Shown piece after piece: positions 25,519 through 45,552 of a stretch of DNA of 64,000 nucleotides (positions are counted from its first letter, which is position 1; each line of letters begins with the position of its first letter). A program made the translations under genes and the position numbers. This stretch comes from an uncultured Candidatus Saccharibacteria bacterium (GTDB taxonomy: Bacteria; Patescibacteriota; WWE3; UBA101185; UBA10185), in NCBI GenBank assembly GCA_964643995.1, contig CAZXUJ010000002.1:114125-178124 (forward strand), given 5' to 3'. Below the pieces are notes generated by a model. The model worked only from the letters and a program-made list of their open reading frames with translations, was not told where the DNA came from and did no database searches.

Positions 25519-26192
25519 CTTTTGATGTACTGACCCTATTTCCCGAGCTATTTCAAAATCATTTCAATGAGCTACCTTTTAAACGAGCAATAAAGAAAGA
25601 ACTTATAGAGTGCAAGGTAACAAATCTAAGAGACTTTGCAGTAGATAAACATGGTACCGTAGATGATAAACCGTATGGTGGGGGAGTGGGAATGATATTA
25701 ATGCTCGAACCTATCTATAAAGCGCTTCACAAGATATACGATGGTCAATACAAAGATAAAAAGATAACACCACCAAAAAAGGACAAAATCATCTTTTTAA
25801 CACCAACTGGTAAAACTTACAATCAAAACAAAGCCTATGAATTAGCCGAATATAAACATTTAACATTCATTTGTGGAAGATATGAAGGGGTTGATGCGAG
25901 AATATCCGAAATTGCAGATATCGAGGAGATTTCAATAGGAGATTATGTACTTTCTGGCGGGGAATTGCCTGCATTAGTGATCATGGAAAGTATTGTGCGC
26001 CTACTTCCAGGAGTTCTTGAAGATCCAGAGGCACTGAACACTGAATCTTTCACGGAGATTTATCTAGAGCACCCGCAATATACAAGACCAGAAAACTTTC
26101 AGGGTATAAAAGTACCTGAAATACTTCTTTCAGGACACCATAAAAACATTGAACAATGGAAAAAAGATAACTCTAAAAAGCCTCAGGTGTAG
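25512..26192 (+). CDS. trmD: tRNA (guanine37-N1)-methyltransferase TrmD
   Basis: 'FDVLTLFPE' N-terminus and the SPOUT knot region 'GGYEGVDAR...SIGDYVLSGGE'. Confidence 0.9.
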   Translation: MLTFDVLTLFPELFQNHFNELPFKRAIKKELIECKVTNLRDFAVDKHGTVDDKPYGGGVGMILMLEPIYKALHKIYDGQYKDKKITPPKKDKIIFLTPTGKTYNQNKAYELAEYKHLTFICGRYEGVDARISEIADIEEISIGDYVLSGGELPALVIMESIVRLLPGVLEDPEALNTESFTEIYLEHPQYTRPENFQGIKVPEILLSGHHKNIEQWKKDNSKKPQV

Positions 26193-26961
26193 GAGGAACT
26201 TCTTCTATCACTACTTCGCCTGGTACAGGCTCTACAGGTAAATCGCTACCTGGAAGATCAGTAATATCTATAAAGTTTTCAACAGTAATATCGTAGTGTC
26301 TTAGGTTTTTTAAACGCTCCATCATTTGCTGAAAATCGTCAGCAGTTATATCAAAAGTGATAGGTTCATCGGTGTTGGCTTGGGCACTTACTTCTACATA
26401 TGGAGAAATTAACACCATGTTCGTATCAACTGTGCCAAGTTCCTCGTCAACAGTGAATCTTACGGTTGCGACATTTATTACACGAGAGGAATCTTCCAGA
26501 TTGGTCAAAAAGGTCACTACCTGATTATAGTTGCCTGCGACACTTATATTTACTGCAACAACTTGATAATTGCCAATTTTAGGGTCAACCTCACCAGTAT
26601 CGTTCAGCGCATAGCTCATGCGTGTAATTGCAAGACCTGATTCACGTGCTATCTGATCAATTTGGGTCAATAATTGAGGAACCAAAGGTTCATTAGATAA
26701 TGCTTTTGAAACCAAGACATTACTATCATCAACATTCTGTTTGAAATCTAAAAGATTATTTAGTTTTTCAACTTTATTGACTAACTGTTGGGATAAGTCC
26801 GCACGATCCTTAAGTTCTGAGTTTAGAAGAGGTATATCACTTAAAGAAGGATAGATGTATAAACCTAACAAACCAAGAGAGAGCACAAGTGCAACTAAAG
26901 GAATGATAAAATTTGCTATCGTTTGTTTAAGTCTAATACCTAATAATTCTTTTACATCCAT
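26173..26961 (-). CDS. pilO: type IV pilus assembly protein PilO-like (bitopic)
   Basis: N-terminal TM, a coiled region, a C-terminal ferredoxin-like region with alternating hydrophobics ('YQVVAVNISVAGNYNQVVTFLTNLE'), and position downstream of pilM-pilN. Confidence 0.6.
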   Translation of the reverse strand: MDVKELLGIRLKQTIANFIIPLVALVLSLGLLGLYIYPSLSDIPLLNSELKDRADLSQQLVNKVEKLNNLLDFKQNVDDSNVLVSKALSNEPLVPQLLTQIDQIARESGLAITRMSYALNDTGEVDPKIGNYQVVAVNISVAGNYNQVVTFLTNLEDSSRVINVATVRFTVDEELGTVDTNMVLISPYVEVSAQANTDEPITFDITADDFQQMMERLKNLRHYDITVENFIDITDLPGSDLPVEPVPGEVVIEEVPPTPEAF

Positions 26962-26976
26962 ATAACTGATGACCCA

Positions 26977-27567
26977 CTACTCAAAAAGTAGTGATGGGTC
27001 GTAATCCACAACAATAAAATAAGTAACTGAAAGATCTTGATTGTCTAAGTTTACTGAGTTAAGTGTTACATTTGTAAAAAGTTTTTCGAATCCAGGGTGC
27101 ACGCCGGGAAAATTCTGATCAGACAATGTATCAATAAAACGAGCGATTGATATGTAATCAAGCCCGGTACCAGACAAACTTATAGCCGAACGGTCATCAC
27201 CAACTAAAGTGAAATTATCTACCTTAACAGTGTCGGAGGGTACTCGTTTTTGTAGTTCATCTAGCAAAATAGAGTACTTATACCTAGCATCAAAAAAATT
27301 ATCCAAAACTACATATTTTGCGTCTAGTTCACGAGCAACAAGTTCTATCTCTAAAAGATTAGAAATATCCGTACGACTTTTTTCTATATTGACGTTTTGT
27401 TGGGCAATTGCTTTGTTGATTTCAGATTTGCGATACCAGTAGTAGCCACTTACACATACAACGATGACTAACAGTAGTATCGAAAATACAGAACTCATTT
27501 TAACGATACGTTCTTTACGTTGTTCTTTTTTTTCCTCTTGTGGAATTAAGTTAATGCTTTGAGACAT
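26977..27567 (-). CDS. pilN: type IV pilus assembly protein PilN
   Basis: The canonical PilN N-terminus 'INLIP', a TM helix, then a periplasmic domain. Confidence 0.7.
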   Translation of the reverse strand: MSQSINLIPQEEKKEQRKERIVKMSSVFSILLLVIVVCVSGYYWYRKSEINKAIAQQNVNIEKSRTDISNLLEIELVARELDAKYVVLDNFFDARYKYSILLDELQKRVPSDTVKVDNFTLVGDDRSAISLSGTGLDYISIARFIDTLSDQNFPGVHPGFEKLFTNVTLNSVNLDNQDLSVTYFIVVDYDPSLLFE

Positions 27568-27568
27568 A

Positions 27569-28612
27569 TTATATTTCTTTCAGTGCCAATCCAACCGCTG
27601 TTGAATAAATTGGTCCTGAGTCCATCAAGGCCTCTCTGCTGTGCTCAATCTTCTCATCTAATTTGATACTTCTCCAAGGATTCGCTAATTCGGCCTCTAC
27701 ATCAAGCTTATTTACCATGTAGGCAAGTAGTCCCGGCATCAGAGCAGTTCCGCCAGACAGTGTAACTCTATTTATGAGAACATCGGGATTATGCGTTGTG
27801 TAGTACGTCTTTGATCTGTTTAGTTCCATTAATATATTGTCAAAAACAGGTTTTATTGCTTCGTAAACCTTGCCTTCAACTTGAGTTTCGTCCAGACCAT
27901 AAGCCTTTTTATATTCCTCAGCCTGCACAGCCTCTAGACCTAAACATTTTTGAACAGCGCGAGTCAGTTCATCGCCTCCAACCGACACACTACGTGTAAA
28001 TTGTACGAAACCTTTGTAACTAATGATTAATTGTGTAGAAGCCGCACCAATGTGCACTATTATGCTGGCGCTTGGTCTTTCCGAGGTATCTCCCAGAATC
28101 CTTTCTATGGATAGTGTCTCGGGTTCTATACCTCTTGGAGTCAGCCCAGCACGTTTAATCAAATCGACATAGTTTGCTAAGACCTGATTCTTGGAGGCAA
28201 CTAGAAGAACACCCATAGTATTAGTGTCCGCAGCAGTTTGGGCATTACCACTCTGTAAGATCTGAACATCAAAAGTTACATCTGCAATGGGTATAGGAAT
28301 ATACTCTTCTGCACCTAAAGCAATGAAGTCCTTTAATTCTTTATATTCCATAACAGGCGTCGTTACCACCCGCAAAAATATATCCTGTTCAGGTAAAGCT
28401 ACTACAACGTGGGATGTGCTGAAATGGTGATCTTTTATAAAATTTTTAACAGCTTCTGCGTATGAATTTACTAAATCTTCATTAGTAAAGTTCAGTTCTA
28501 AAGGGGAACCATCGTATACTCCAAAGTTCTTCAAAATTTGCACTCCCTTGATCTTATCAAGCTCAACCGCGCAAAATCTTTCTCTTCCGATGTCGAGTCC
28601 TATAATGGGCAT
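27569..28612 (-). CDS. pilM: type IV pilus assembly ATPase-like protein PilM (actin fold)
   Basis: 'IGLDIGRERFCAVEL' actin-like phosphate-1 motif, 347 aa, followed by pilN and pilO. Confidence 0.85.
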   Translation of the reverse strand: MPIIGLDIGRERFCAVELDKIKGVQILKNFGVYDGSPLELNFTNEDLVNSYAEAVKNFIKDHHFSTSHVVVALPEQDIFLRVVTTPVMEYKELKDFIALGAEEYIPIPIADVTFDVQILQSGNAQTAADTNTMGVLLVASKNQVLANYVDLIKRAGLTPRGIEPETLSIERILGDTSERPSASIIVHIGAASTQLIISYKGFVQFTRSVSVGGDELTRAVQKCLGLEAVQAEEYKKAYGLDETQVEGKVYEAIKPVFDNILMELNRSKTYYTTHNPDVLINRVTLSGGTALMPGLLAYMVNKLDVEAELANPWRSIKLDEKIEHSREALMDSGPIYSTAVGLALKEI

Positions 28613-28646: not shown

Positions 28647-29450
28647 TTAGTTAGCTAATGGATTTATATCTGATTTTGAATATATAACGTAGTCAAATAA
28701 ATACGGGGTTTTATTAGAACCTCTTATGGCACCAATTTTTGTAGTTGTATCTAGGGAGGTTCCTGTGGATTCAATTAGGATGCCCTGGCCAGGTATAACA
28801 GCACTTGCGTGTGGGAAAACCATAACATCCACGTTTTGATACAAAGCACGCAGCCTAAGCAGTTGTGGGGAGGTTTGTGAAGAAATACCAAAGCAACTTT
28901 GATAACCATTTGCTGGTGATGCCTGAGTAAAGTTATTTGTTAACACACTGCTAGCAGAATTGTAAGCTACACTATTAGCCGAATAACTCCCAACAGTACC
29001 GTAAACTAACATACCCACTACTGACGGCAGGGGATCGAGACCCGCTTCGTTCCAACAAATAGTAAGATTAGTGTTGTTTGGATAACCTGCCAAATTTACT
29101 TCGCTTGATGAACTTTGTGACAAAGGCACCGAAAAGGGTTCAGACGAATTTCCAAGTCTAGTAAGAGTAACTGTTGCAGTTTCAACGATTCCATCGCTAT
29201 TAGTAACTTGAAGCGAACATTCAGCGCCACAGCTATTGTTTGTTATGTATGCATCAAGCTCCTGTGGAGTCTTAAGAAGCATTCTTTCTAGCAAAGCATC
29301 TGCAGCTGCCGAAGATCTATAACCTGTTTGAGTCCTTGTAACCGACCTAAGGCTTTTTATAAAACGACTGGAGGTTGCAATACCTATACTTAGCGCCAGC
29401 ACCATTACTAATACTATTATAACTAAAGTTTGTCCTCGTTCTTTGTTCAT
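28647..29450 (-). CDS. PilX-like minor pilus-associated protein (N-terminal TM, no canonical prepilin cleavage motif)
   Basis: 'MNKERGQTLVIIVLVMVLALSIGIATS' resembles a PilX_N-type N-terminus. The real start is probably the internal Met at 29450 rather than the ORF-track start. Confidence 0.4.
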   Translation of the reverse strand: MNKERGQTLVIIVLVMVLALSIGIATSSRFIKSLRSVTRTQTGYRSSAAADALLERMLLKTPQELDAYITNNSCGAECSLQVTNSDGIVETATVTLTRLGNSSEPFSVPLSQSSSSEVNLAGYPNNTNLTICWNEAGLDPLPSVVGMLVYGTVGSYSANSVAYNSASSVLTNNFTQASPANGYQSCFGISSQTSPQLLRLRALYQNVDVMVFPHASAVIPGQGILIESTGTSLDTTTKIGAIRGSNKTPYLFDYVIYSKSDINPLAN

Positions 29451-29454
29451 ATGA

Positions 29455-30015
29455 TCAATAAGTACCACGCAAAACTATAGTCTGTTCGAGTGGAACACTG
29501 CCTTGAAAACTTACACCACCAGTGGAAGCAGCCTGGAGTAAATTAAAATCAATCATAACAACATGAGGCTGGCTTTGATTCAAAACACAAATTTGACTTG
29601 AATTGTGATCAAGTTTTATACCGTTTGACTGAGTGCTATCCAAAACTGGGGAAGTAAACGAGTTAATACCATCATTTTCTGTACGACGTAAGGTACCTGC
29701 ATCGGCACCACTAGTATCAATCTGATAAGTGATCGTCACCAAACTATCATCTAATACACTATTCCTTTGGAATACTAATGTCGTGGAACATGTCCCCTGT
29801 GCAGGGCTAGTTAAGGATAATGCAACACGAAGTTCTTTTTCCATTTTTGACATCGCGATTGTTCCAGATTGCTCGATTTCGTTTGTAATTCTTGTCTTAT
29901 TGTACGTCCTTACTAAACTCAAAATGATGTCTGTAGTAAGACCAGCCGTTATAGCCAAAAGTGATATTGAGATTAACAGTTCAATTAAAGTAAAACCCTT
30001 TTCCGAGCGCTTCAT
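29455..30015 (-). CDS. prepilin-type minor pilin (pseudopilin)
   Basis: Class III signal 'MKRSEKG|FTLIELLISISL' with Glu at +5. Confidence 0.7.
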   Translation of the reverse strand: MKRSEKGFTLIELLISISLLAITAGLTTDIILSLVRTYNKTRITNEIEQSGTIAMSKMEKELRVALSLTSPAQGTCSTTLVFQRNSVLDDSLVTITYQIDTSGADAGTLRRTENDGINSFTSPVLDSTQSNGIKLDHNSSQICVLNQSQPHVVMIDFNLLQAASTGGVSFQGSVPLEQTIVLRGTY

Positions 30016-30018
30016 AAC

Positions 30019-30546
30019 CTAGTCAGTCCTCCAGTTAGAAACATCAGTGAAAATGTGAGAGGACTGTGCATCATTTCCTACCATCCACGTAACTTCTATA
30101 TTTATTCTAAGTACTGGGTCGGTGGTGCTTATTATATTGGTGTTATCACCAACCTCCTGAACAGGGTCAGTTACAGAGAAAGAGTATGAAAGTTCATTAA
30201 CAGTACCTACTTCCTCTGTGAAAACACCACTATTTATTACGAGATTGTAACTGTTGTCCACAGACATATAGCAATCACCACTGTTAACACAACCAAAAGC
30301 GTTTATGGCAGCTACAAACACGTCCCAGTTTCTGCTATCTCTATAAGCTCTAACCAACTCCAACTGTTCATTTGCCGATTTAGAGCCGCGTAGTAAAAGT
30401 TTGCCTCGACTGGAGGATCTAAGAGTGTATACAGATAGGGAAACTAGGGACGTTATTACAACAATCGCCAACCCTAGTGCCGCAATTATTTCGATTAGAC
30501 CTATACCACTTTCTGACTTGTTAAAATAATTTAGTTTGTAGGACAT
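30019..30546 (-). CDS. prepilin-like minor pilin (divergent cleavage motif)
   Basis: 'SESGIGLIEIIAALGLAIVV' is a G|xxLIE-type N-terminus. Confidence 0.55.
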   Translation of the reverse strand: MSYKLNYFNKSESGIGLIEIIAALGLAIVVITSLVSLSVYTLRSSSRGKLLLRGSKSANEQLELVRAYRDSRNWDVFVAAINAFGCVNSGDCYMSVDNSYNLVINSGVFTEEVGTVNELSYSFSVTDPVQEVGDNTNIISTTDPVLRINIEVTWMVGNDAQSSHIFTDVSNWRTD

Positions 30547-31088: not shown

Positions 31089-31114
31089 ACTAAAATGATA
31101 ACACAACAAACTTG

Positions 31115-32646: not shown

Positions 32647-32652
32647 TTGATG

Positions 32653-32684: not shown

Positions 32685-32691
32685 TCTTTGG

Positions 32692-33391: not shown

Positions 33392-34306
33392 CTACTGTGT
33401 CAAGTTATCCTTTGAATAAAATGAGAAATCAAATACTGCCGGTGTGTAAGAGAAAGATTTAAACACTGTAACATCGCGGGCAATACCGTCTGTATTTACA
33501 AGTTCACCTCGCGTTGTGATTTTATAACCTTGCATAGGCAGGGCAGGGGTAGGGAACAATCGTCCATCATCTATAGCATCGCCTAAAGCTCTAATTCTTA
33601 ATCCCTGCGGGTCACTGACACCATTAGCACCTGAAACAACTACGGTGTAACAATGATCGTATTCTGGGTGTCCTGCGGAACTCCCGGAGGAAGCAGTTTC
33701 GGCATTGCCATAAGTCCACTGATGGCAATTTTGTGTGGAACAACGCACTATATCGTTTACGTTGTCTCCCAAGTCATTATAGACACGGTAATATAAATCA
33801 GCATTGCCATCCCAACATACTTCTACCTCAGGCTGACCATATCCATCCAAGAATATCTCTTTAACGTCATTTGCTGGAATTGAGAACACCGAGGAATAGC
33901 CATTGTCTGGATCAGTAACGTCATACTCCTCAACCGTAACTGCGGAACGCACCTCTATAGGATCTTGCCCGGTACCACTCTGTGCGGTAAAACGTACAAA
34001 ACATGTTCCGGAACTTGTAACCCATTCCCCACTTAAAATACCTGTGCATTCAGACGAACTTATACCATTAGTGGCCAGACTATCCAGATCGTTGTTACTC
34101 AGGGTCAAAGTTCTTTCTGCAGCTCCCTCAGCCGCGGCTAGAGCACGCTGTGAGGTATCCGTATCTGCGACAGTGGAAACAGAATTTATAGTTTCCAAGG
34201 ACAAACCAATACCCAAAGCTAAAGCTATAGTCATGGTTATAACAACAAACAACAAGGCCTGTCCTAATTCATTTCTTTTCAAGTCAATGTTTATCAAAGG
34301 TTTCAT
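33392..34306 (-). CDS. PilX-like pilus-associated protein (N-terminal TM + secreted domain)
   Basis: 'ELGQALLFVVITMTIALALGIGLS' N-terminus. No enzymatic motif, and it lies within the minor-pilin operon. Confidence 0.4.
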   Translation of the reverse strand: MKPLINIDLKRNELGQALLFVVITMTIALALGIGLSLETINSVSTVADTDTSQRALAAAEGAAERTLTLSNNDLDSLATNGISSSECTGILSGEWVTSSGTCFVRFTAQSGTGQDPIEVRSAVTVEEYDVTDPDNGYSSVFSIPANDVKEIFLDGYGQPEVEVCWDGNADLYYRVYNDLGDNVNDIVRCSTQNCHQWTYGNAETASSGSSAGHPEYDHCYTVVVSGANGVSDPQGLRIRALGDAIDDGRLFPTPALPMQGYKITTRGELVNTDGIARDVTVFKSFSYTPAVFDFSFYSKDNLTQ

Positions 34307-34326: not shown

Positions 34327-36585
34327 TTATGGACTGACTTTCCATATGACATCTTGTTCCATTACTCCAGAATTTTCGGTCAACTCACGCCCATAAATTG
34401 GATTGTATTTGACAAGTGCCGCAGGATATAAGGCATTGCTTAACCCCAAATTGCGTCGAAGTTCAATGTTAACAGTAGTGACATCAGACGACCCAGCAAC
34501 AAAAGGTCCCTCTAACAAAATTATTTTGTCTGGTTGCCCAGGAAAATTGGGGGAATAGCTTGAACCAAAGGTTATAGTGTGCTGTGCAATTAACCCAATT
34601 TGTAAATGAGCAGGACTAGTGGCAAGGTTACCAATTGTTGCAACTGTGGTTCCTACATCAGGAGCAATATAGACCGGGCGCTGACTTATAATTAAAATAC
34701 GACGATCAGTATGTTGTGATGTAAAACTCTGAGGAAAAGTTAGTGAACCAGCACTACCAGTTACATATAGCACAGCCACACCAGCCCCACCACCAAGATT
34801 ATAGTCATCATTATTTAACAGATAGCTATTTACTAGGCCAATTTCGGCGCGATATACACGACCGGTTTGCATGGTGTTCAAGCCCTGCGCATTTGTAAGG
34901 TTGGTAGCACCCGCTGGGGGCGTAAAACTAAAGGTGGAAGGCCAAAATCCTCCAGTAAAACCATCTATATACTTACCACCCTCAACCAAACGATCTGGTG
35001 ACACCTGTATATCTTCACCAAAAACTGCTACTTCGCGACTTCCACCATGAAATGTCAGATAGGGCTCTACACCACTATTTGGTGCAACAACCCCAGATAC
35101 ATTCGCCGCGATAACTTCGCCGTATGTATCACCATCCAAACTTGCAAACCAACCGTCATCATAGGGATTCTCCAAGACATAACCAAAATTATACCCAGCT
35201 AAATTAGTGTTGAAATTGGCTACAGGTATAGAAGCAAGAGTAGGGCTATATGTCCATGTACCAGAGTTGCCAGCTTTTATACACTGGTATCTGTACTGAA
35301 TTCCGACAGCAGCCAAATCGGGATCATTGGAACTCACCACAGTTCTATTCAACGATACAGCTCCTGCAGCGCCAGGTAAGTTCGTAATTGTATAGTTGGA
35401 GTTTCCTGCATTAACATTTGCGGATCTGCTATAACTATACGTGGTAACATTAAACGTGGCAGTTACTGGGTCTGCAGTAAGATTGGCCACGGAATGCAAA
35501 CTTGATTGCCCAGCGACTGGGGTGCAGGTGTTCCCACTAACCGTGACATAATTCAAAGTACCACTTAAAGAATAAGGTGTACAGGTATTCACAAAAAATG
35601 CAGCACCGGGGACGTCTGCAGACAGCGCGCCATTCGCAGCTTCAGCTTGAACACTCCATCCTAGATATTGCCCGGGCACAAAAGACATAATCGCAGGCTG
35701 AATACCGATCGTTGCAGTACAGGTTGCACCATTACAGGAACCACTAGTGCTAGTATTTGCGCTTGGGGGAATATATCTCCACCAATCATTTGCACTCACC
35801 CATTCGGGATTAGTCAAATCCTCACGATTAACTCTCAAAATATATCTGACCGCACCCGGAACAGCAGTCCAATTGAATGTGCCAGTACGATAAGGTAAAT
35901 TGTTTCCGGGGTTTACGCAAACATCACTGCGACTTAAAATAACAGGATTTCCAAAAACTTGATATCTGAAGTTGCAATCGGTACCACAGTCATTAGATGC
36001 ATTGGCCTCTTGACTCTCATAGCTGGCTGAGTTTAGCGGGGTATGGGCACCAGAAACTACATTCCAACTTGCCGTATTGTTTGTAGTCTGAGCAGGAGGT
36101 ATGTACCCTGAAGGCGCAGTTTGCGGAGTTGCCATGTTACCTGGCACTCTTACGGCATAAGTATAACCGGCCTCTACGGCATTTGTGAAAACAAAGTAAC
36201 CATTACTGTCAGTGGAATCATAAATTGTTGTGTTAGTACCTGTATCATATAGAGAAACATTTACATTTTGAATCCCAACATTGGTATTAGCGTCCCGGAC
36301 ATAACCCGCAACAGTAATCATTATGTTGCCACCACCACAACAATAAGCACCAGGACACTCTGCATCCCAACCCGAGTTAGTGTTACATTGGTTATTATCG
36401 CAATTACAAGTACACCCATGATCTTCACAACAATCATGTCCCGTTGGAGGGCAAGTGTAACCAGCAGGACAGTCTCCACAGGTATGGTGCGCATAAACAG
36501 GTGAAGTAGCTGTAGAGGTAAAAGTAACAACTACAAAAAACCCAAACAAAACCAAAATATGTCTAGTAAAATTATTTTTCTTCAT
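34327..36585 (-). CDS. large secreted Cys-rich protein with CnaB/carboxypeptidase-regulatory-like beta-sandwich; candidate pilus-associated adhesin
   Basis: Signal peptide 'MKKNNFTRHILVLFGFFVVVTFTSTATSPVYA', a Cys-rich module 'CGDCPAGYTCPPTGHDCCEDHGCTCNCDNNQCN', then 'ITVAGYVRDANTNVGIQNVNVSLYD...SNGYFVF' (CnaB-like), then a long Thr/Ser/Asn/Gly-rich region. Confidence 0.55.
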   Translation of the reverse strand: MKKNNFTRHILVLFGFFVVVTFTSTATSPVYAHHTCGDCPAGYTCPPTGHDCCEDHGCTCNCDNNQCNTNSGWDAECPGAYCCGGGNIMITVAGYVRDANTNVGIQNVNVSLYDTGTNTTIYDSTDSNGYFVFTNAVEAGYTYAVRVPGNMATPQTAPSGYIPPAQTTNNTASWNVVSGAHTPLNSASYESQEANASNDCGTDCNFRYQVFGNPVILSRSDVCVNPGNNLPYRTGTFNWTAVPGAVRYILRVNREDLTNPEWVSANDWWRYIPPSANTSTSGSCNGATCTATIGIQPAIMSFVPGQYLGWSVQAEAANGALSADVPGAAFFVNTCTPYSLSGTLNYVTVSGNTCTPVAGQSSLHSVANLTADPVTATFNVTTYSYSRSANVNAGNSNYTITNLPGAAGAVSLNRTVVSSNDPDLAAVGIQYRYQCIKAGNSGTWTYSPTLASIPVANFNTNLAGYNFGYVLENPYDDGWFASLDGDTYGEVIAANVSGVVAPNSGVEPYLTFHGGSREVAVFGEDIQVSPDRLVEGGKYIDGFTGGFWPSTFSFTPPAGATNLTNAQGLNTMQTGRVYRAEIGLVNSYLLNNDDYNLGGGAGVAVLYVTGSAGSLTFPQSFTSQHTDRRILIISQRPVYIAPDVGTTVATIGNLATSPAHLQIGLIAQHTITFGSSYSPNFPGQPDKIILLEGPFVAGSSDVTTVNIELRRNLGLSNALYPAALVKYNPIYGRELTENSGVMEQDVIWKVSP

Positions 36586-36591: not shown

Positions 36592-37236
36592 TTAGGGCAA
36601 CAATGCCTCCGAGGTTTCCAAAGCTTCTATTTCACGATCGTTTAAGATTCTGCCTCCGACTGAAACTTCTTTTGCAGAAAAACTGGCATCCTCGTTAACT
36701 TTAATGGTAACACCAAGAGTCACATCTTTAAACCTTTGCAACTTTTCGTAAACGGTAAGATCATAAAAGTCATTTGGAAAAGTATTGATATTGTTTGCTG
36801 GGGAAATCTCAAGGGACGCATCATAAGCAACTCGGATAGTTTGAAGCTTACCCGGATAAGATAATTCAAATTTATTTTCATCTACAGTAACCAACATACC
36901 AACAACTACAAGCTCACAGTAAGTATCTTGCCCAACCGTAACCAATCCTGACGAATAAACTCCAAATCCATCCTTTAGCGGATACGTAGATGCATATGTG
37001 GCACACAAAGCTGATAAATCATTGTTAGGTACAAGCATGACATTTGAATTACTTTTCACGAAATCAGGCCGATTCATCAGTACACCTGTAACAACAATTA
37101 AAACAACAATTAAGAAAAAAACGGCAATGTACACTGGTAAATAGGAGTGACTTGAGGATGGTTCGGGATGTTCAACGGCTAAAGAATCTTGGAAACTAGG
37201 ATTATTCTCCATATGGATATTTTTCCACATGGACAA
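36592..37236 (-). CDS. hypothetical single-TM protein at head of pilus operon
   Basis: 214 aa with one TM helix (YIAVFFLIVVLIVVTGVL) and no recognised motif. Confidence 0.45.
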   Translation of the reverse strand: MSMWKNIHMENNPSFQDSLAVEHPEPSSSHSYLPVYIAVFFLIVVLIVVTGVLMNRPDFVKSNSNVMLVPNNDLSALCATYASTYPLKDGFGVYSSGLVTVGQDTYCELVVVGMLVTVDENKFELSYPGKLQTIRVAYDASLEISPANNINTFPNDFYDLTVYEKLQRFKDVTLGVTIKVNEDASFSAKEVSVGGRILNDREIEALETSEALLP

Positions 37237-37370: not shown

Positions 37371-38219
37371 ATGAACACGAAACGAATGAGTTTGATGATA
37401 TTGGTATTGTTTTTGTTATTGATTGTAGGTTGCGTTGCAGAAACTATACCCCCCACAAGGATTACAGTTACTCCAACGGAGGTTTGGAAACCGCTGGCAC
37501 CTGTGGTTATAGAAGTCGTACAGGCAACACTAGGCCCACCGGCAACACTGACTGCAGTACCAACGATAACCCGGGACCCAACGGATACCCCTGTACCAAC
37601 GGTTACAGCGACTGCTACAGCTACAGCTTGGCCAACGTGGACTAACACACCGATGCCAACGGCTACAGCGACTGCTACAGCTACAGCCTGGCCAACCAAT
37701 ACCGTAATGCCAACGGCAACCACGGGACCAACCAACACACCATGGCCAACGCTGGAACCAACCCCGAGTCCGACGGAAACGGCAGTTCCAACGGTAGTAG
37801 CTGCAGGTGGTAGCACAATTCCGTTCGGAACGCCACCCGAAAGCTTAGAAGCGTTGGTGGCATGCCTGGCCCCGATTTACATAACACCGTCTTACGAGAT
37901 GGTGGAATGGACAGGACAGGATGGTACTGTCTGGCACATGGAAAGAGGAAACCTGGCGTCAGTGGATCCAATTGGAAGAACGGTTACATTTGTGAACGGC
38001 GTTGTTGTTCAATATGACGCACCTGCAGTCTATGTGCGTTACCAACGCCAAAGCGGTAACTGGTGGGAATCACCGGAAAACTGGCAAGTTACACCTCAGC
38101 TTTTTACTTGGGAACAAGTTTTGACGGCCATGCAGTTGGCACTTTCCCAAGGTAAGGTTGTTGGCATCCAACGCATTACAGAAAACAGTAACACGTTGGT
38201 AATTTGCCATGCACACTAG
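37371..38219 (+). CDS. lipoprotein with Pro/Thr-rich tandem-repeat linker and C-terminal globular domain
   Basis: Good RBS (aaaaggagcatgagATG), a signal peptide plus lipobox 'LLIVGC', and a repeated 'PTVTATATATAWPT' module. The antisense ORF 37244..37816 is a shadow of the GC-rich repeat. Confidence 0.7.
   Translation: MNTKRMSLMILVLFLLLIVGCVAETIPPTRITVTPTEVWKPLAPVVIEVVQATLGPPATLTAVPTITRDPTDTPVPTVTATATATAWPTWTNTPMPTATATATATAWPTNTVMPTATTGPTNTPWPTLEPTPSPTETAVPTVVAAGGSTIPFGTPPESLEALVACLAPIYITPSYEMVEWTGQDGTVWHMERGNLASVDPIGRTVTFVNGVVVQYDAPAVYVRYQRQSGNWWESPENWQVTPQLFTWEQVLTAMQLALSQGKVVGIQRITENSNTLVICHAH
37596..37760 (+). repeat. tandem repeats of about 60 bp (2.5-3 copies) encoding a PT-rich linker
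   Basis: 'ccaacggttacagcgactgctacagctacagcttggccaac...' recurs at 37596 and 37656 with a few substitutions. GC is well above the window average. Confidence 0.6.
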
Positions 38220-38420: not shown

Positions 38421-39872
38421 CTAGTCACTAGACCTAACCACAAAGGGTAATAATGTTTCAAATCCAACAGGTGGTTCGGGGGTTACAGTAGGGGTAGGTG
38501 ACGGCGAGGGAGTGGGTGTGCTTGTTGGTGTAGGTGTTTCAGTGGGTACCACAGGTACTACATCAAGGAGAAACACATCCCAAGTACCGTTATTGTCACC
38601 TACAACAAGATTGGGCACTAATGACTCAAAAATCACACTATCTTGAGCAGTAAAAGCAGGGAAATGAGTTTTTTCCCCTTGACCACCACCACCAATCAAA
38701 AGAATGGTATGCCCATCCTTGTGAAGATATAGCCTACTTAGAAACCCCTGCACATTGGAGGTGAGATCAGACGCCATGGACTCGAAAACCACATGCCCTG
38801 AATCATTCACCGTGGCTCCAAAGAGTCCCGAATTGTTATCGGACTCACCACCAAAGCTATCCACAGACACCAAGGACAAGGTGTTACTGATGGTATCCAA
38901 CATATACACGTCGGAAAACCCATTGGTGTCTATAGAGGACAAATTCTCCGCAAACGACTGAAAAACTACATATCTGCCGTTTGGGGAAATCATAGGAAAT
39001 GAGCTTGAAGAGTCAGCAGGACCACCTTCAGTACTACGTACAACATACGACACTTCGTTGGTCGTAGAATCATAGAGGTATATGTCCTCAAATCCACTCC
39101 AAGCTCCAGTGGAAACCCAGTTACTGGCAGTGGACGAGAAAACAACACAAGACCCATCAAGATTAATTTTTGGTTCGTAGGACGCTCCGTTAGGTTCCAC
39201 ACCAAAACTTGGTACCAGACGCGAAAGTTCCCAAGTTACAACATTGCGCACGAAAATATCTGTGCGCAAGTTAGTATCCTCGGGAACGAGGTTTTTGGAG
39301 TCAGATGTGAAAACCACCCATTGGCCATTCCCTGATATTTGACTGCCACCAGAAAACCCGTCACCCTCTGCACCTGACCACGACGTCGAAACTCGAACAA
39401 CTTCTTGAGTTAGTGCATCCCAAACAAACACGTCAGGAGTTTGATTTGTATCATTTTCCACCAGATCAAAGGCATCTGAGGTAAACGACACAAACCGACC
39501 ATCTGCTGAAATTGAAGGATTCATGGAAGGGCCATTTGCCGGGCCATCACCACCTAAGCTATGGGACACTAAACAGATTTGCTGAGTTTGCATGTCTTTT
39601 AAGAAGATATCAGAGGCGTTATTTGTATCACCCACTACCAGATTATTGGCAAAAGAGTTAAATACGACGTAACGACCACTTGCAGATACAGCGGCAGATT
39701 GAGAGGCATTATTGCCAATAGTCCCCTCATTGTCAGCACTAACCAAAAAGACATCACCAAATGTTGCTTCAACGACTCCTGACGATACAAATATCATCAG
39801 AAATATAACCAACACGATAAAAACAATCCCACCCCGAAGGGTGGTTTCTCCAAACCGATTCACGGTATTCAT
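38421..39872 (-). CDS. N-terminally anchored TolB-like (PD40/WD40-like) beta-propeller protein with C-terminal PT-rich tail
   Basis: Repeated 'SxDGRxVxFxS...DIFxxD' PD40-like blades, an N-terminal TM helix, and the C-terminus 'TETPTPTSTPTPSPSPTPTVTPEPP'. Confidence 0.7.
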   Translation of the reverse strand: MNTVNRFGETTLRGGIVFIVLVIFLMIFVSSGVVEATFGDVFLVSADNEGTIGNNASQSAAVSASGRYVVFNSFANNLVVGDTNNASDIFLKDMQTQQICLVSHSLGGDGPANGPSMNPSISADGRFVSFTSDAFDLVENDTNQTPDVFVWDALTQEVVRVSTSWSGAEGDGFSGGSQISGNGQWVVFTSDSKNLVPEDTNLRTDIFVRNVVTWELSRLVPSFGVEPNGASYEPKINLDGSCVVFSSTASNWVSTGAWSGFEDIYLYDSTTNEVSYVVRSTEGGPADSSSSFPMISPNGRYVVFQSFAENLSSIDTNGFSDVYMLDTISNTLSLVSVDSFGGESDNNSGLFGATVNDSGHVVFESMASDLTSNVQGFLSRLYLHKDGHTILLIGGGGQGEKTHFPAFTAQDSVIFESLVPNLVVGDNNGTWDVFLLDVVPVVPTETPTPTSTPTPSPSPTPTVTPEPPVGFETLLPFVVRSSD

Positions 39873-40880: not shown

Positions 40881-40913
40881 CGCAAAAGAAAAGACCCCAT
40901 TACTGGGGTCTTT
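40881..40913 (-). terminator. Rho-independent terminator immediately downstream of pilA
   Basis: 9-bp stem aaagacccc / ggggtcttt with a 6-nt loop. On the minus strand it is followed by UCUUUUG. Confidence 0.65.
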
Positions 40914-40924
40914 CCTAATGAACG

Positions 40925-41437
40925 TTAGTTTATAAGATCTAAACCAGGGTCTGTACCCATTTCGTAAACAGCAGCGTTGTCTCCGCCATCTGTCGTCATT
41001 TTATTTGCATTATCTGCGGCTTCCAGAACAGAATTGACTTCATAATTTGTGCCGTCAGATGCCCATGAGTAGGTACCTGTAGAAGGATCAGCTGGTAAAA
41101 CCGAAACAAATTTACCAAGGCCGGTTAATCCTACAGGAATTGTGAATTTGACCCATCCGTTTGCGCCATCTACACCCTGTCTTGGGGTTGCTGCAGTACT
41201 GGTACATGTTGCACAAACACCACTAGTATCTGTTAAAACGATTTCACCATCAGCTAAAGCTAAGGTGACTGCCTTATTCAAGGCATCCATATCTTCTAAT
41301 CTCTGTGCATCACGGCCTTCTTGCAATAATTGAGCTGGGTTCAAAACAACAAGCACAGCACCTGCTAATACACCAATAATTGCGATAACGATGATAAGTT
41401 CTACTAATGTAAAACCTTTTTGATTTTTGTTAAACAT
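40925..41437 (-). CDS. pilA: type IV pilin PilA (likely major pilin)
   Basis: 'MFNKNQKG|FTLVELIIVIAIIGVLAGAVLVVLNP', 170 aa. It has its own terminator and is adjacent to pilC and pilD. Confidence 0.75.
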   Translation of the reverse strand: MFNKNQKGFTLVELIIVIAIIGVLAGAVLVVLNPAQLLQEGRDAQRLEDMDALNKAVTLALADGEIVLTDTSGVCATCTSTAATPRQGVDGANGWVKFTIPVGLTGLGKFVSVLPADPSTGTYSWASDGTNYEVNSVLEAADNANKMTTDGGDNAAVYEMGTDPGLDLIN

Positions 41438-41460
41438 TCAATTCACCTCCCTTCAATCAG

Positions 41461-42663: not shown

Positions 42664-42666
42664 ACG

Positions 42667-43737
42667 CTAGCCTCTCACTCCCTTTATCAATCTACGCAAC
42701 ATGTCTGGGCTAACTGAGAATTTCATTGCTTCTTCCTCAGTTATCTCCTCTCGATGCACCAACAAGGCAAGACTTGAGTCCAACCCGATCATCCCAATAT
42801 TTGAGCTTGTACCTATAACATTATCAAGCTGGTGCGATTTACCCTCACGAATTAGGCTACGAACAGCATCACTACCTAACATTATTTCTACTGCTGGTAC
42901 AACACCTGACTTTTTTGATGGAATTAATCTTTGGGACACTACAGCCTCCAAAACCTGAGATAACTGAAGCTTTATCTGCAATTGCTTAACCTCAGGAAAA
43001 CTACTAATCATACGATCTATACTTTGTGAAGCCGAATTAGTATGCATTGTTGCAAAAACTAAATGACCGGTTTCAGCAATCGTTAAACAGGACTGTGTAG
43101 TCTCGATGTCTCTAAGTTCGCCTATGAAGACTACGTTAGGATCTTGACGTAAAATAGCTCTCAAAGCACCATCCCAAGAATGAGTGTCCAAATACATCTC
43201 GCGTTGTTCAACTAACGACTTTTTATTAGTAAAAATATATTCGATTGGATCTTCAATGGTAACGATGTGCTCTGAACGAGTCTCATTGATATGATCTATC
43301 AATGCTGCTATTGTAGTAGATTTGCCATGCCCAGTAGGTCCTACAACCAATACCAATCCCTGACGTATATCACATAATCTGGTGATTATTTCAGGTAAGT
43401 TGAGATCCGTTAGCTTTGGAATAACCAATGGAATAACACGTAGAGCAACAGCAGGGTAACCCTTTTGGTAGAAAGCGTTGACCCTAAAACGAGCCTTATT
43501 ACTAAGTGCAACTGAAAAGTCTACCTCACGATTAACCTCCAAGATATTCTTTTGCTCTTCGGTCAGAACTTTGGACAAAAACAAGTTGATATCATCAACA
43601 GTGAGAACATCTGTGTCCTCAAGAGGGTAGAGTTCACGATCTACACGAACTACAGGAGAAATCCCAACAGTAAGGTGCAAATCAGAGGCTCCTTGTTCTA
43701 TTACATTTTCTAAAATTTTTGATACGTTAAACGCCAT
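42667..43737 (-). CDS. pilT: type IV pilus retraction ATPase PilT
   Basis: Walker A 'GPTGHGKSTT', 'HLVFATMHTNSA' His box, a PilT-typical length of 356 aa, and no N-terminal GSPII_E_N domain. Confidence 0.85.
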   Translation of the reverse strand: MAFNVSKILENVIEQGASDLHLTVGISPVVRVDRELYPLEDTDVLTVDDINLFLSKVLTEEQKNILEVNREVDFSVALSNKARFRVNAFYQKGYPAVALRVIPLVIPKLTDLNLPEIITRLCDIRQGLVLVVGPTGHGKSTTIAALIDHINETRSEHIVTIEDPIEYIFTNKKSLVEQREMYLDTHSWDGALRAILRQDPNVVFIGELRDIETTQSCLTIAETGHLVFATMHTNSASQSIDRMISSFPEVKQLQIKLQLSQVLEAVVSQRLIPSKKSGVVPAVEIMLGSDAVRSLIREGKSHQLDNVIGTSSNIGMIGLDSSLALLVHREEITEEEAMKFSVSPDMLRRLIKGVRG

Positions 43738-43776
43738 ATACTTTTGCCCTCGAAAAGCAGGTCTGTACTCAGATCG

Positions 43777-45552
43777 CTAATTATTTGCCACTCTCATAAC
43801 CTCTTCCAAGGTAGTAGCCCCTTCCACAACTCGTAAATAACCATCCTGAACCAAAGTAAGCATTCCATCAGCTATAGCCGCCTCAGCTATCATGTTTTCT
43901 GGCTTATGCTCAAGTATCATTTTTCCAATCTCATTGGACATTTCCAAAACTTCAAAAATACCTATTCGACCTTTATACCCAGAATTTCCACATTTATCAC
44001 AGCCTTTTCCTCGGGAGAGCTTTAGTTTACCCTTGCCAACTTTTGCTATAGTTTCTGCGATGATTTTGTCTTTGTGCATCAAAACTTCTGAGCTCTGAAC
44101 ATTTGCCAAAATTTTTCTTATATCCTTTTCAATTTCATCAGGTGCATCGTACGTCTCCTTACAATCGGCACAGATTTTTCTAACTAAGCGTTGAGCAAGT
44201 ATAGCGTTCACTGTGGATGCCAAAAGAAAATTTTCTACTCCCATATCTATCAAACGGGGGAGTGCCCCAGCCGCTGAGTTTGTGTGTAAAGTTGACAAAA
44301 CAAGGTGACCGGTCAAAGCAGCATGTATGGCAAGTTCTGCCGTTTCACTATCTCGAACCTCTCCTACCATTATTATATTTGGATCTTGTCTTAAAAATGC
44401 TCTTAGTCCAGAAGAGAAGGTTAGTCCAGCCTTGGGATTAACCTGAACGTGATTGACCCCAGGTACTCTAATTTCAACCGGGTCCTCAATGGTAACAACG
44501 TTAACCCTAACAGTGTTAAGTTTAGCTAAAGCGGTTGCAAGGGTAACGGTCTTACCCGAACCTGTGGGACCTGTAACAAGTACCATACCAACCGGCCTTA
44601 TTATTGCTTCTTCAAAACGCTTCAAAGATAAGCCGCGCAAACCAAGATCTTTATAGGTAAAAACATTACCTTGCTCTTTCAATAATCGAATAACCACCTT
44701 TTCACCAAATACTGTGGGTAAGGTTGAAACTCTCAAATCAGTGCCTGTGTTACCCACCTGTACTTTAAAACGACCGTCTTGAGGAATACGTTTCTCGTCG
44801 ATCTTCATGACCGAAAGTATCTTTATACGAGCAACAATAGATTCATGCATCTCCTTAGGGAATTTTCTTTTTTCTTGTAAAACACCATCAACACGGTAAC
44901 GTAATCTAGTATCAGATTCGGTTGGTTCGATGTGTACATCAGAAGCACCAATTTTTACAGCGGTTTCTAAGATCATACCTACAATACGAGCAATAGGTGC
45001 ATCTCTAATTGTTGCATCGTCGGCATTCAAATCGCCAGAATCACCTTTAAGCTGTAAAGTGGTAGCACTTATTTCTTCTAGTGCAGCACTAATTTCTTCT
45101 GAGATGGCTTTTCCTTGAACTTCACCTAATACCGCCTCTATCTCCTTAAGGGTCGAGATGTAGGGTTTTACAGTGTAGCCAGTTTTTCTTTCGATAAATT
45201 CAATGGTCTGGAGGTCTAGTGGATCAACCATAGCCACCGATAGAACGTTATCATTCATGTCTAACATAAACGGCGCTACTTGATATCTTTTCTCTACAGC
45301 AACAGGCAGTAACTCCAAAACATTTTGTTCGATTTTGACTTCTTGGGGATTAATATATTCAATGCCGTATACCTCACCAAAAGACTTCACAAAATCCTCG
45401 TTTGTGACGTAACCACGTTCTTTAATAATAGTCTCAGCACTCTTACCAGTATTTACATGTTCGAATTTAACAGCAGATAGCTGATCTGCATTTATGAGGG
45501 TTTTTTCGAAGAGAACGTCTTCTATTCCTTTATGTGCGTTTGTTGAATCCAT
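43777..45552 (-). CDS. pilB: type IV pilus assembly (extension) ATPase PilB (GspE family)
   Basis: An N-terminal GSPII_E_N domain, Walker A 'GPTGSGKT', 'HLVLSTLHTNSAAG', and a C-terminal tetracysteine 'CADC...CDKC'. Confidence 0.9.
   Translation of the reverse strand: MDSTNAHKGIEDVLFEKTLINADQLSAVKFEHVNTGKSAETIIKERGYVTNEDFVKSFGEVYGIEYINPQEVKIEQNVLELLPVAVEKRYQVAPFMLDMNDNVLSVAMVDPLDLQTIEFIERKTGYTVKPYISTLKEIEAVLGEVQGKAISEEISAALEEISATTLQLKGDSGDLNADDATIRDAPIARIVGMILETAVKIGASDVHIEPTESDTRLRYRVDGVLQEKRKFPKEMHESIVARIKILSVMKIDEKRIPQDGRFKVQVGNTGTDLRVSTLPTVFGEKVVIRLLKEQGNVFTYKDLGLRGLSLKRFEEAIIRPVGMVLVTGPTGSGKTVTLATALAKLNTVRVNVVTIEDPVEIRVPGVNHVQVNPKAGLTFSSGLRAFLRQDPNIIMVGEVRDSETAELAIHAALTGHLVLSTLHTNSAAGALPRLIDMGVENFLLASTVNAILAQRLVRKICADCKETYDAPDEIEKDIRKILANVQSSEVLMHKDKIIAETIAKVGKGKLKLSRGKGCDKCGNSGYKGRIGIFEVLEMSNEIGKMILEHKPENMIAEAAIADGMLTLVQDGYLRVVEGATTLEEVMRVANN

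Follow-up and report, generated by a model that had tools for sequence, protein, structure and literature searches.

A secretin-free type IVa pilus locus in a Patescibacteria/CPR bacterium, with a proposed two-gene tip module

What does the 19-kb stretch at positions 26173-45552 of the window (the whole stretch of 64,000 nucleotides analysed here) encode, and what might the unassigned genes embedded in it do? The stretch is flanked by housekeeping genes (TrmD, RNase III, NusB, pyruvate kinase, HolB, GyrB, GyrA, PBP1, RecG and aminoacyl-tRNA synthetases), and an earlier note, made from the sequence alone, had read it as a type IV pilus (T4P) apparatus with coordinates that were confirmed exactly by the placement of the ORFs. 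Type IV pili of CPR bacteria that have PilB/T/C/D and divergent pilins but lack PilQ were described earlier (Kantor 2013, PMC3812714; Meheust 2018, 10.1101/335083). As publications on PilQ-less CPR pili go back to 2013, the T4P interpretation itself is not new; the novelty lies in the unassigned genes within the locus. In our view, with a probability of about 0.7, a Patescibacteria/CPR bacterium carries here, in a single complete locus, an outer-membrane-free type IVa pilus system of the secretin-less kind, including a proposed tip module.

The motor, platform, peptidase and alignment genes of the locus are the following.

43777-45552, minus strand: pilB, extension ATPase, 591 aa; best NCBIfam match TIGR02538 PilB, then GspE
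42667-43737, minus strand: pilT, retraction ATPase, 356 aa; TIGR01420, T2SSE and motifs
41461-42663, minus strand: pilC, platform protein, 400 aa; Pfam T2SSF twice, E = 1e-63
39972-40856, minus strand: pilD, prepilin peptidase, 294 aa; A24_N_bact 4e-26, Peptidase_A24 4e-8
27569-28612, minus strand: pilM, 347 aa; PilM_2 (PF11104), E = 7e-41
26977-27567, minus strand: pilN, 196 aa; PF05137, 26.2 bits (cutoff 22.8)
26173-26961, minus strand: pilO, 262 aa; PF04350, E = 7e-12

Of these, PilT scored 428 bits against the PilT/PilU model TIGR01420 (cutoff 319) and 2e-40 against Pfam T2SSE, and contains the motifs GPTGHGKST and AVRSLIRE. A PilT-family ATPase above the curated cutoff together with this AIRNLIRE-like motif supports the reading of the locus as encoding a dynamic T4a-type pilus, which the earlier note had proposed from the joint presence of PilB and PilT. 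PilB matched TIGR02538 with E = 1e-171 and 572 bits, under the model's strict cutoff of 675; its translation contains the Walker A motif GPTGSGKT and a CxxC...CxxC cluster, and its orthologs in related loci have MshEN and T2SSE domains. PilC reached 1e-105 with the GspF model and 6e-96 with the PilC model, all below the strict equivalog cutoffs, and PilD shows the CxxC...CxxC and GGGDVK motifs. PilM scored 184 bits against TIGR01175 (cutoff 133), PilN has an N-terminal INLIP motif, and PilO, which reached 4e-5 with the GspM model, has an acidic, Pro-rich C-terminal extension, the 3' end of its gene overlapping the convergent trmD by 20 nt. Thus, the profile searches that had been suggested were positive for PilM, PilN, PilO, N_methyl, T2SSF and Peptidase_A24; that for T2SSE was positive with Pfam for PilT, PilB being scored with NCBIfam models only. 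None of 20 flanking ORFs of the window (all of those with at least 400 aa) matched secretin models, which agrees with the claim that PilQ is absent. As the window ORFs scanned include no GspD/PilQ, GspC or GspL/M, the pilins are not accompanied there by the GspD secretin that the earlier note had named as the mark of a type II secretion system.

The remaining part of the apparatus consists of PilA and seven further prepilins, with two hairpins.

40925-41437, minus strand: pilA, probable major pilin, 170 aa, G|FTLVE; N_methyl 6e-11
40887-40916, minus strand: intrinsic-terminator-like hairpin 3' of pilA, from RNA folding; 13-bp stem, U-rich tail
32692-33276, minus strand: pln7, PilA-like pilin, 194 aa, G|FTLIE; N_methyl 3e-9
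32653-32684, minus strand: conserved 13-bp stem-loop, 8 nt past the pln7 stop; -28.8 kcal/mol, z -6.9
32146-32667, minus strand: pln6, pilin, G|FTLVE; N_methyl 6e-8
31587-32162, minus strand: pln5, pilin, 191 aa, G|FTLVE, GspG-like globular part; N_methyl 2e-8
31115-31657, minus strand: pln4, pilin, G|YSLIS, GspG-like; Pfam T2SSG 3e-5, TIGR01710 1.5e-7
30531-31109, minus strand: pln3, pilin, 192 aa, G|FTLLE; N_methyl 7e-8
30019-30546, minus strand: pln2, pilin, 175 aa, G|IGLIE; from signal and gene order
29455-30015, minus strand: pln1, pilin, 186 aa, G|FTLIE; N_methyl 8e-8

Eight class III signals had been counted. Seven, that of PilA and six of the other seven, have the canonical G|xxxxE form, but the eighth, that of pln4, has lost Glu5, a feature of this clade (its orthologs elsewhere mostly have G|xTxxE). 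N_methyl was above cutoff for PilA and five of the other seven. pilA is the best-conserved pilin between related loci (1e-43 to 1e-59), and the hairpin behind it (-25.3 kcal/mol, z -5.3; none of 200 shuffles folded as well) would act as a terminator. The gene of pln7, whose best NCBIfam match is the Myxococcus PilA model (3e-10), is preceded by a 115-nt gap with AGGAGG and followed by a stem-loop that recurs at the same place in L001, the closest relative (z -3.7); pln7 is possibly a second abundant pilin. The listed GTG start of pln6 falls within this stem-loop, and translation probably begins at the AUG near 32646. Residues 25-114 of pln5 match GspG (TIGR01710, 1e-11). The N-terminal region of pln3 matches the PpdD and GspH models (1e-10 and 7e-10), and the gene was found in all 25 loci spanning that stretch. 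pln2, for which no HMM match was obtained, lies between pln3 and pln1 in every case, and its signal across 25 orthologs is mostly G|[IL]G[LI]xE, with a few variants such as G|IALVE. The matches of pln1 were weak (ComGF 2e-5, GspJ 2e-3).

The genes that the earlier note had left unassigned, or had labelled PilX-like, are listed below.

33392-34306, minus strand: X304, Glu5-less PilX/GspK-like non-canonical pilin, 304 aa
28647-29468, minus strand: X273, Glu5-less PilX/GspK-like paralog of X304, directly upstream of pilM
34327-36585, minus strand: secreted protein, 752 aa; Sec signal, Cys-rich stretch, Ig-like domains, C-terminal beta-solenoid
36592-37236, minus strand: small bitopic membrane protein, 214 aa, one TM helix near residue 30; directly upstream of the 752-aa gene
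37371-38219, plus strand: lipoprotein, 282 aa; lipobox LIVGC, Pro/Thr-rich linker, conserved C-terminal domain
38421-39872, minus strand: exported PD40/TolB-like beta-propeller protein, 483 aa, Pro/Thr-rich C-terminal linker; PD40 6e-8

Gaps or overlaps within each block of the locus are at most about 115 nt. The T4P components had been placed on the minus strand, and every ORF of the locus except the lipoprotein gene does lie there. This gene is inverted, as stated, but the beta-propeller gene described as its convergent partner is co-directional with pilD. A minus-strand ORF at 37244-37816 was rejected as an antisense artefact of the Pro/Thr-rich repeat of the lipoprotein.

X304 and X273 share a conserved N-terminus, GQALLF..., without Glu5, and sequence comparison indicates that they are paralogs (BLASTP 5e-17) in a lineage-restricted family. 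The description of the pair as PilX_N-like is not supported by Pfam: PilX_N detects neither ORF, and only 2 of 35 family members matched it, at E values of at least 0.11. X273 had no Pfam or NCBIfam match, and PilX_N, T2SSK and the ice-binding DUF3494 (Pfam) gave no significant matches. The PilX-like label that we use rests on the Glu5-less N-terminus of both proteins, gene position, and the predicted fold of X304, a pilin-like head plus a beta-sandwich, the model's best matches being GspI-type pseudopilins, with GspK among the matches.

The 752-aa protein, called giant before, is mid-sized in its family (652-1823 aa). It has 12 Cys in residues 36-83 and a conserved beta-solenoid at about residues 440-752. 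Across the family, the conserved part is the C-terminal ~300 aa, C-terminal in every case, and a Sec-type signal was present in all but a few of 45 homologs inspected. The protein evolves faster (69% identity) than X304 (84%) and PilD (87%). A PDB profile search with its C-terminal domain gave spurious matches only.

Conservation of gene order links these genes to the pilus genes. Twenty related loci share the order large protein-X304-pilins-pln3-pln2-pln1-X273-pilM(-N-O), with pilB/T/C/A/D ahead of it in every locus whose flank is long enough; five further loci differ only by the absence of pln4 and X273, which are present or absent jointly, and X273 orthologs are upstream of pilM in 20 of the 25 loci. 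Most of the 20 loci, among them that of the complete RAAC2_WWE3_1 genome, are labelled candidate division WWE3. Several of the closest relatives are labelled Saccharibacteria or Nomurabacteria, and named WWE3 relatives show at most 40% identity; judging from the nearest named relatives of the lineage-specific genes, the organism, an ultrasmall candidate-phyla bacterium, is probably WWE3-like. Wherever the upstream flank of an X304-type gene could be read, a large protein was found directly before it, or, in locus L027, the fragments of the large gene, which is split there; in four cases, however, a large protein is one gene away from X304 instead of adjacent. Four loci chosen via the large protein alone had the same X304-type neighbour, and stand-alone copies between topA and rpsB, outside T4P loci, still paired the two genes.

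The lipoprotein (no Pfam match) has an ortholog in L001, likewise inverted, and in eight other loci, including the stand-alone L024, homologs of its C-terminal domain lie upstream of the large protein at a distance of up to about 1.5 kb; a ninth, in L027, lies about 3 kb upstream of the gene fragments. Sequence homologs of the bitopic protein were found in the closest relative only, and most related loci have at its position a single-TM ORF of 100-260 aa, which in many cases overlaps the large gene at its start. Lipoprotein, bitopic protein, 752-aa protein and X304 form a recurrent four-gene accessory module upstream of the pilin array. The beta-propeller protein had a detectable ortholog in L001 only among the loci examined (63% identity), again beside pilD.

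Synteny and fold evidence strengthen the suggestion of the earlier note that the embedded genes are candidates for tip or anchoring functions. We propose that the conserved large protein and X304 probably build the pilus tip, as an apparently undescribed pair that may be regarded as a "split ComZ/PilY1-like" module. Pilins would be processed by PilD, and PilA would be polymerised by PilB/PilC on a primer that consists of the invariant pln3-pln2-pln1 trio and has a Glu5-less PilX/GspK-like protein (X273 and/or X304) as its cap; PilT would retract the fibre. The 752-aa protein would be exported by Sec and dock via its solenoid onto X304 at the tip, and the pair would then be the equivalent, in two polypeptides, of Thermus ComZ-PilA2, cyanobacterial solenoid-PilX or PilY1-PilX.

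These systems show how the parts compare. In Thermus thermophilus, ComZ carries its IBP-like solenoid as an insertion within the pilin fold, all in one polypeptide, and binds PilA2, the pilin adjacent to it (PMC6561018), whereas here the solenoid makes up the C-terminal domain of a protein with a Sec signal and without a pilin domain, following Ig-like/Cys-rich parts. The cyanobacterial PilX "tip plug" also combines a Glu5-less terminal minor pilin with an IBP-like solenoid, occurs in organisms without PilY1, and belongs to distinct minor-pilin sets tied to specialised filaments, as here (10.64898/2026.02.12.705559); however, the solenoid there is fused inside PilX, and cyanobacteria are diderm and have PilQ. 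As in the PilY1/PilC and FimU-PilV-PilW-PilX systems of Myxococcus and Pseudomonas (PMC7541494, PMC5979040), a large protein that is not a pilin, variable in its N-terminal part, conserved in its C-terminal domain and proposed to sit on Glu5-less PilX at the tip, is encoded beside the minor pilins, of which a core set of about four lies next to the machinery genes, but in PilY1 the conserved domain is a beta-propeller and not a solenoid, and the PilY1 and PilX_N models had no match in the locus. By gene order and weak N-terminal HMM matches, pln3/2/1/X273 may correspond to FimU/PilV/PilW/PilX. The nearest parallel among CPR bacteria is T4P-1 of Nanosynbacter lyticus TM7x (PMC11623550), one locus with PilB/T/C/D/M/N/O, a small major pilin, divergent minor pilins and no secretin, whose largest "PilX" proteins, as here, lack a predicted PilD signal, have an extra beta-rich domain and are proposed tip proteins. 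Compared by description, TM7x has five pilins in that locus, against eight prepilins and two PilX-like paralogs here, where the PilX-like gene is accompanied by a separate secreted solenoid protein, a bitopic protein and a lipoprotein.

The adjacency of the 752-aa protein and X304 could, on the other hand, reflect co-regulation only. It is conceivable, at perhaps one chance in four, that the family of the 752-aa protein consists of ordinary surface adhesins or wall proteins, exported by Sec, which work independently of the pilus and lie beside the PilX-like gene only through co-regulation or co-inheritance of surface-structure genes: the protein has a Sec and not a class III signal, its stalk is Ig/CnaB-like and similar to Gram-positive adhesins and sortase pilins, and copies exist outside T4P loci. 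Yet those stand-alone copies keep their own X304-type pilin-like gene, the conserved solenoid is of the ComZ/IBP type used at Thermus and cyanobacterial pilus tips (PMC6561018; 10.64898/2026.02.12.705559), and the C-terminus shows neither a sortase motif nor a wall anchor. Rather unlikely is the view that the tip module is a DNA receptor, a split ComZ-PilA2, on a pilus serving mainly DNA uptake (for nucleotides or transformation) and not host attachment. The solenoid showed no sequence similarity to ComZ, the window ORFs scanned contain neither comEC nor comEA, competence was normal in those T4P-2 pilin mutants of TM7x that were tested (PMC11623550), and the variability of the Cys-rich/Ig-like N-terminal parts and the presence of multiple divergent copies in a genome resemble the diversification of adhesins. 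It is very improbable that the locus encodes a type II secretion or Com-type pseudopilus system and not a surface pilus: although several pilins match GspG/T2SSG models in their globular domains, PilC scores highest on GspF, and the order GspG-like, pln3, pln2, pln1, X273, pilM/N, pilO mirrors gspG-H-I-J-K-L-M, the PilT-family ATPase is present, GspD and GspC are absent among the window ORFs scanned, PilM, PilN and PilO are separate proteins that score better on T4P models than on GspL/GspM, and homologous Saccharibacteria systems make visible pili (PMC11623550).

The locus, then, encodes PilB, PilT, PilC, PilD, PilM/N/O, a PilA-type pilin and seven further prepilins. If the large protein and X304 do form the tip of this pilus, the variable Ig-like/Cys-rich part of the 752-aa protein would be displayed as its receptor-binding end, and the pilus may, by analogy with Saccharibacteria (PMC11623550), serve in host contact, motility or DNA uptake.

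The segment from 26173 to 45552 holds 21 real genes, 20 of them on the minus strand and separated by short gaps or overlaps, and they include the gene set for a retractile, secretin-less type IV pilus (T4P) of the T4a type. The genes with which we are mainly concerned are the following.

Genes of the pilus locus (percentages are identity to the closest relative, locus L001)
28647..29468, minus: X273, a 273-aa paralog of X304
29455-33276, minus: pln1 to pln7, prepilin-type pilins (pln6, 90%)
33392..34306, minus: X304, a 304-aa PilX/GspK-like protein without Glu5 (84%)
34327..36585, minus: the large protein, 752 aa, with a Sec signal and a predicted C-terminal beta-solenoid (69%)
36592..37236, minus: the bitopic protein (69%)
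37371..38219, plus: the lipoprotein (60%)
38421..39872, minus: the PD40 protein, a beta-propeller (63%)
adjoining the PD40 gene, minus: PilD (87%)
40925..41437, minus: PilA

Profile searches assigned the parts of the machine. PilO (PF04350, E 7e-12), PilN (26 bits, the cutoff being 22.8, with INLIP at its N-terminus), PilM (Pfam E 7e-41, and TIGR01175 above cutoff), PilD (A24_N_bact, 4e-26, together with Peptidase_A24 and a GGGDVK motif) and PilC (two T2SSF domains, E 1e-63) all exceed the Pfam gathering scores. PilT scores 428 bits with TIGR01420, whose cutoff is 319, and carries a Walker A motif and AVRSLIRE, and an identical PilT is present in the reads SRR8893623/4; the top match of PilB is TIGR02538 (572 bits, E 1e-171, under the equivalog cutoff of 675), and its sequence contains a Walker A motif and a tetracysteine cluster. 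The T4P apparatus that the earlier note recognized in this sequence, including its pair of extension and retraction ATPases, is thus real and was rightly interpreted. The eight class-III-signal pilins that it counted are reduced to seven with a canonical G|xxxxE signal, since the eighth, pln4 (31115-31657), reads G|YSLIS and has no Glu5.

PilQ, with PilP, is a feature of diderm systems only. As had been claimed from the sequence, a secretin is missing: no Secretin match was obtained within the locus or in 20 scanned ORFs of the flanks, among them every one of at least 400 aa, and the absence of PilQ is the rule in CPR bacteria (10.1101/335083). The possibility that the pilins are type II secretion pseudopilins near a GspD secretin had also been raised. 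No GspD, GspC or GspL/GspM was detected in the locus and the flanking ORFs scanned, and PilT is present; the GspL model reaches PilM at E 0.08 and the GspM model reaches PilO at 4e-5, both more weakly than the PilM and PilO models themselves.

The locus is flanked by housekeeping genes, and no tRNA gene was found in the window. pilO (minus) and trmD (plus) are convergent genes that share 20 nt at their 3' ends (26173-26192). An ORF of 751 aa at 59364-61619 joins a Ham1/ITPase domain (7e-37) to an IMPDH/GMP-reductase-type barrel (3e-13); both domains belong to nucleotide metabolism, and their fusion is unusual. Two ORFs of 406 and 544 aa (50736-51956 and 53767-55401, minus) had no Pfam match at the thresholds used.

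Secretin-less T4P loci of CPR bacteria are known biology, because the T4P genes of RAAC2_WWE3_1 were reported by Kantor et al. 2013 (PMC3812714), CPR pili that have PilB/T/C/D and divergent pilins but lack PilQ were described by Meheust et al. 2018 (10.1101/335083), and the roles of two such pili in Saccharibacteria were demonstrated by Grossman et al. 2024 (PMC11623550). What is new is a conserved module composed of the solenoid protein and a PilX-like protein, for which we found no description for Patescibacteria in the searchable literature.

Homologs of X304 are few. A word-indexed search returned 34, from CPR metagenome bins, and a genome scan with the X304 family alignment gave 38 loci, with a best identity of about 40%. 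The titles of most name candidate division WWE3, the complete genome RAAC2_WWE3_1 among them, and some name Saccharibacteria, Nomurabacteria or Patescibacteria. The representative genomes therefore do not include the species of the window, for which we infer a WWE3-like lineage. When the ORFs of these loci were labelled using the proteins of the window, 20 loci shared one order: large protein, X304, a pilin array ending in pln3-pln2-pln1, X273 and pilM, then pilN/pilO in loci that continue beyond this point, with pilB/T/C/A/D upstream wherever the flank is long enough. The pln3-pln2-pln1-X273 block is inverted in one locus, and pln4 and X273 are both missing in five.

With an HMM of the C-terminal domain of the large protein, each X304-type gene that has a readable flank is found to be immediately preceded by a matching large ORF; in L027, where the large gene is split, the HMM matches the fragments. 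The same neighbours were recovered in four loci picked via the large protein alone. Furthermore, the pair persists outside pilus loci: in RAAC2_WWE3_1 (L026; CP006914.1, about 488.7-492.4 kb) and four other genomes (L024, L030, L032 and L036) it lies among housekeeping genes, with topA on one side and rpsB-tsf-frr on the other, at a distance from the pilus locus; genes for small membrane proteins or lipoproteins come before it. Eight loci (L009, L011, L019, L020, L031, L033, L036 and L038) also have duplicates of the large-protein gene, either in tandem or with a single gene in between, with a second PilX-like gene in some of them and not in others. The copies are divergent, and therefore the module has expanded repeatedly.

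The 752-aa protein begins with a Sec-type signal peptide and has 12 Cys in residues 36-83. Next come an Ig domain that resembles CarboxypepD_reg at a score below threshold, other beta domains and finally the C-terminal region, which is the best conserved part. Like nearly all of 45 homologs, it has a Sec-type signal and neither a class III signal nor a pilin-like helix, and in about three quarters of the large proteins upstream of X304-type genes a Cys-rich stretch comes after the Sec signal, although by jackhmmer these N-termini share composition only, with no detectable homology. An exhaustive profile search was needed to reveal the family. A word-indexed search with the whole protein found a single homolog (68% identity, identical synteny), and one with the C-terminal-domain alignment returned one uninformative fragment; the profile search of 1.84 billion cluster representatives matched 99 proteins, many of which (600 to 1800 aa) match at their extreme C-terminus, at profile positions of about 400-759. 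In the predicted structure this domain (residues about 440-752) is a triangular beta-solenoid like that of ice-binding proteins. The likeness is at the level of the fold, as the ice-binding family DUF3494 gave no Pfam match at E <= 0.01, and a profile of the domain against PDB sequences gave spurious bromodomain matches only.

X304 and X273 are paralogs (BLASTP 5e-17) whose orthologs occupy fixed places: those of X304 precede the pilin array, and those of X273 separate pln1 from pilM. The earlier description of both as PilX-like is borne out by the N-terminus, which is strongly conserved in the family (G-Q-[AVT]-L-L/V-..., a hydrophobic helix and TDTS.R.LAAAEGG.ER, with no Glu at +5), but not by PilX_N itself: neither protein has a Pfam or NCBIfam match (Pfam E <= 0.01; PilX_N PF14341 and T2SSK included), and PilX_N touches only two of 35 family members, at E >= 0.11. 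A hydrophobic N-terminal helix after Gly without Glu5, and a pilin fold with an added domain, the fold being that of the X304 model, are features of the PilX/GspK type. Further structure matches of this model, with modest scores, are jelly-roll and carbohydrate-binding-type sandwiches. These features agree with a capping pilin of the GspK/PilX type that lacks Glu5 and bears an additional beta-sandwich, and TM7x PilX1 has been described in much the same terms (PMC11623550).

A single-pass membrane protein of 100-260 aa recurs upstream of the large gene, often overlapping its start, with a conserved position and a sequence that is not conserved; jackhmmer found homologs of the bitopic and PD40 proteins in the closest relative only. 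In eight other loci, including one stand-alone module, a lipoprotein homolog is encoded no more than about 1.5 kb upstream of the large gene, and a ninth match is about 3 kb from split large-gene fragments. The lipoprotein and beta-propeller genes had been described as a convergent pair; only the lipoprotein gene is inverted, and the PD40 gene has the orientation of pilD. The lipoprotein gene is real, because the closest relative has it in the same inverted position, and we therefore regard the overlapping minus-strand ORF 37244-37816 as an antisense artefact of its Pro/Thr-rich repeat. That ORF reads as a Gly/Val-rich protein of 190 aa, and in L001 the gene caller chose an equivalent 160-aa artefact. 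The PD40 protein has a Pro/Thr-rich linker near its end and, after it, a short conserved tail, LLPFVVRSSD (YLPFVVND in the relative), which could be a sorting or anchoring signal, albeit one matching no known motif.

As for the shaft, PilA would be the major pilin, because no other pilin is as well conserved and its gene is followed by a strong terminator. This intrinsic-terminator-like hairpin with a U-rich tail lies in the pilA-pilD gap (40887-40916, minus, z -5.3); such hairpins are typical of major-pilin genes with partial read-through. A consensus promoter/terminator scan stayed at background level and missed it. A second element, a perfect 13-bp stem-loop without a U-tract 8 nt past the pln7 stop (32653-32684, minus, z -6.9), is kept at the same place in L001 (about 8301-8328) and might indicate that pln7 is an abundant pilin with an expression of its own. 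Because the listed GTG start of pln6 overlaps the stem-loop, its start is probably the AUG near 32646. The +5 residue of pln4 is Ser here and in the closest relative, and most orthologs elsewhere keep G|xTxxE; across 25 loci pln4 and X273 are jointly present or jointly absent, a co-occurrence that hints at a functional pair. Assembly may be primed by pln3-pln2-pln1 together with a Glu5-less cap, an order that, with weak HMM support, parallels fimU-pilV-pilW-pilX and gspH-I-J-K before the L/M-like pilM/N/O. When alignments of the orthologs of pln1, pln2, pln3 and X273 were searched as profiles against the PDB, the matches, where there were any, were confined to the N-terminal helix of full-length pilins, and individual GspH/I/J/K or FimU/PilV/PilW/PilX identities are not assignable from them.

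Two known kinds of tip protein bear on the module. ComZ is a tip-located competence pilin whose large solenoid resembles ice-binding proteins and which binds the neighbouring pilin PilA2 (PMC6561018), and cyanobacterial PilX proteins carry the same kind of solenoid and have been proposed as the tip plug replacing PilY1 (10.64898/2026.02.12.705559). At the level of the predicted fold, the 752-aa protein shares their triangular solenoid. In ComZ and the solenoid-PilX, however, the solenoid is inserted in the pilin fold of the same polypeptide, whereas the 752-aa protein has a Sec-type signal and no pilin-like helix. It is plausible that the large protein and its PilX-like partner are a split variant of these tip proteins. 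The Sec-exported large protein would dock via its solenoid on X304 at the pilus tip and expose its variable part. Extending this, we propose, tentatively and with a probability of roughly 0.3, that the tip of the WWE3-like pilus is an exchangeable cassette of a lipoprotein, a bitopic protein, a Sec-exported protein, with a hypervariable Cys-rich/Ig-like end and a conserved ComZ/IBP-like solenoid for docking, and a dedicated Glu5-less PilX-like adaptor, with alternative receptors supplied by extra cassettes.

On the other hand, the large protein may be an adhesin that works independently, a reading we consider doubtful: it has a Sec-type signal and copies exist outside pilus loci, yet those copies keep their own X304-type gene. 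The PilY1/PilC adhesins end in a beta-propeller, for which the 752-aa protein gave no Pfam or NCBIfam match; its C-terminus is modelled as a solenoid instead. That the module is a DNA receptor in the manner of ComZ is improbable. A T2SS or Com pseudopilus is rejected as most improbable because PilT is present and no GspD/C was detected in the locus and the flanking ORFs scanned.

Among host-contact organelles of ultrasmall CPR bacteria, type IV pili have the strongest support, and to our knowledge genetic tests of CPR pili are confined to Saccharibacteria. From this locus and its relatives, the uncultivated WWE3-like lineage now gains a parts list: one machine, a fixed minor-pilin trio, two caps that are PilX-like and a secreted protein that evolves fast and has one of the caps as its constant partner. 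If the exchangeable-cassette reading is true, the tip would be a two-polypeptide answer to the role played elsewhere by ComZ, solenoid-PilX or PilY1, and tandem or stand-alone cassettes, such as that between topA and rpsB in RAAC2_WWE3_1, would give one pilus machine alternative receptors and so a changed host or substrate range. If the large protein and X304 are the tip receptor, the solenoid 'tip plug' that is fused to pilins in Thermus and cyanobacteria could also be a separate subunit, and the pair would provide a handle for predicting or fishing the hosts or ligands of WWE3-like organisms.
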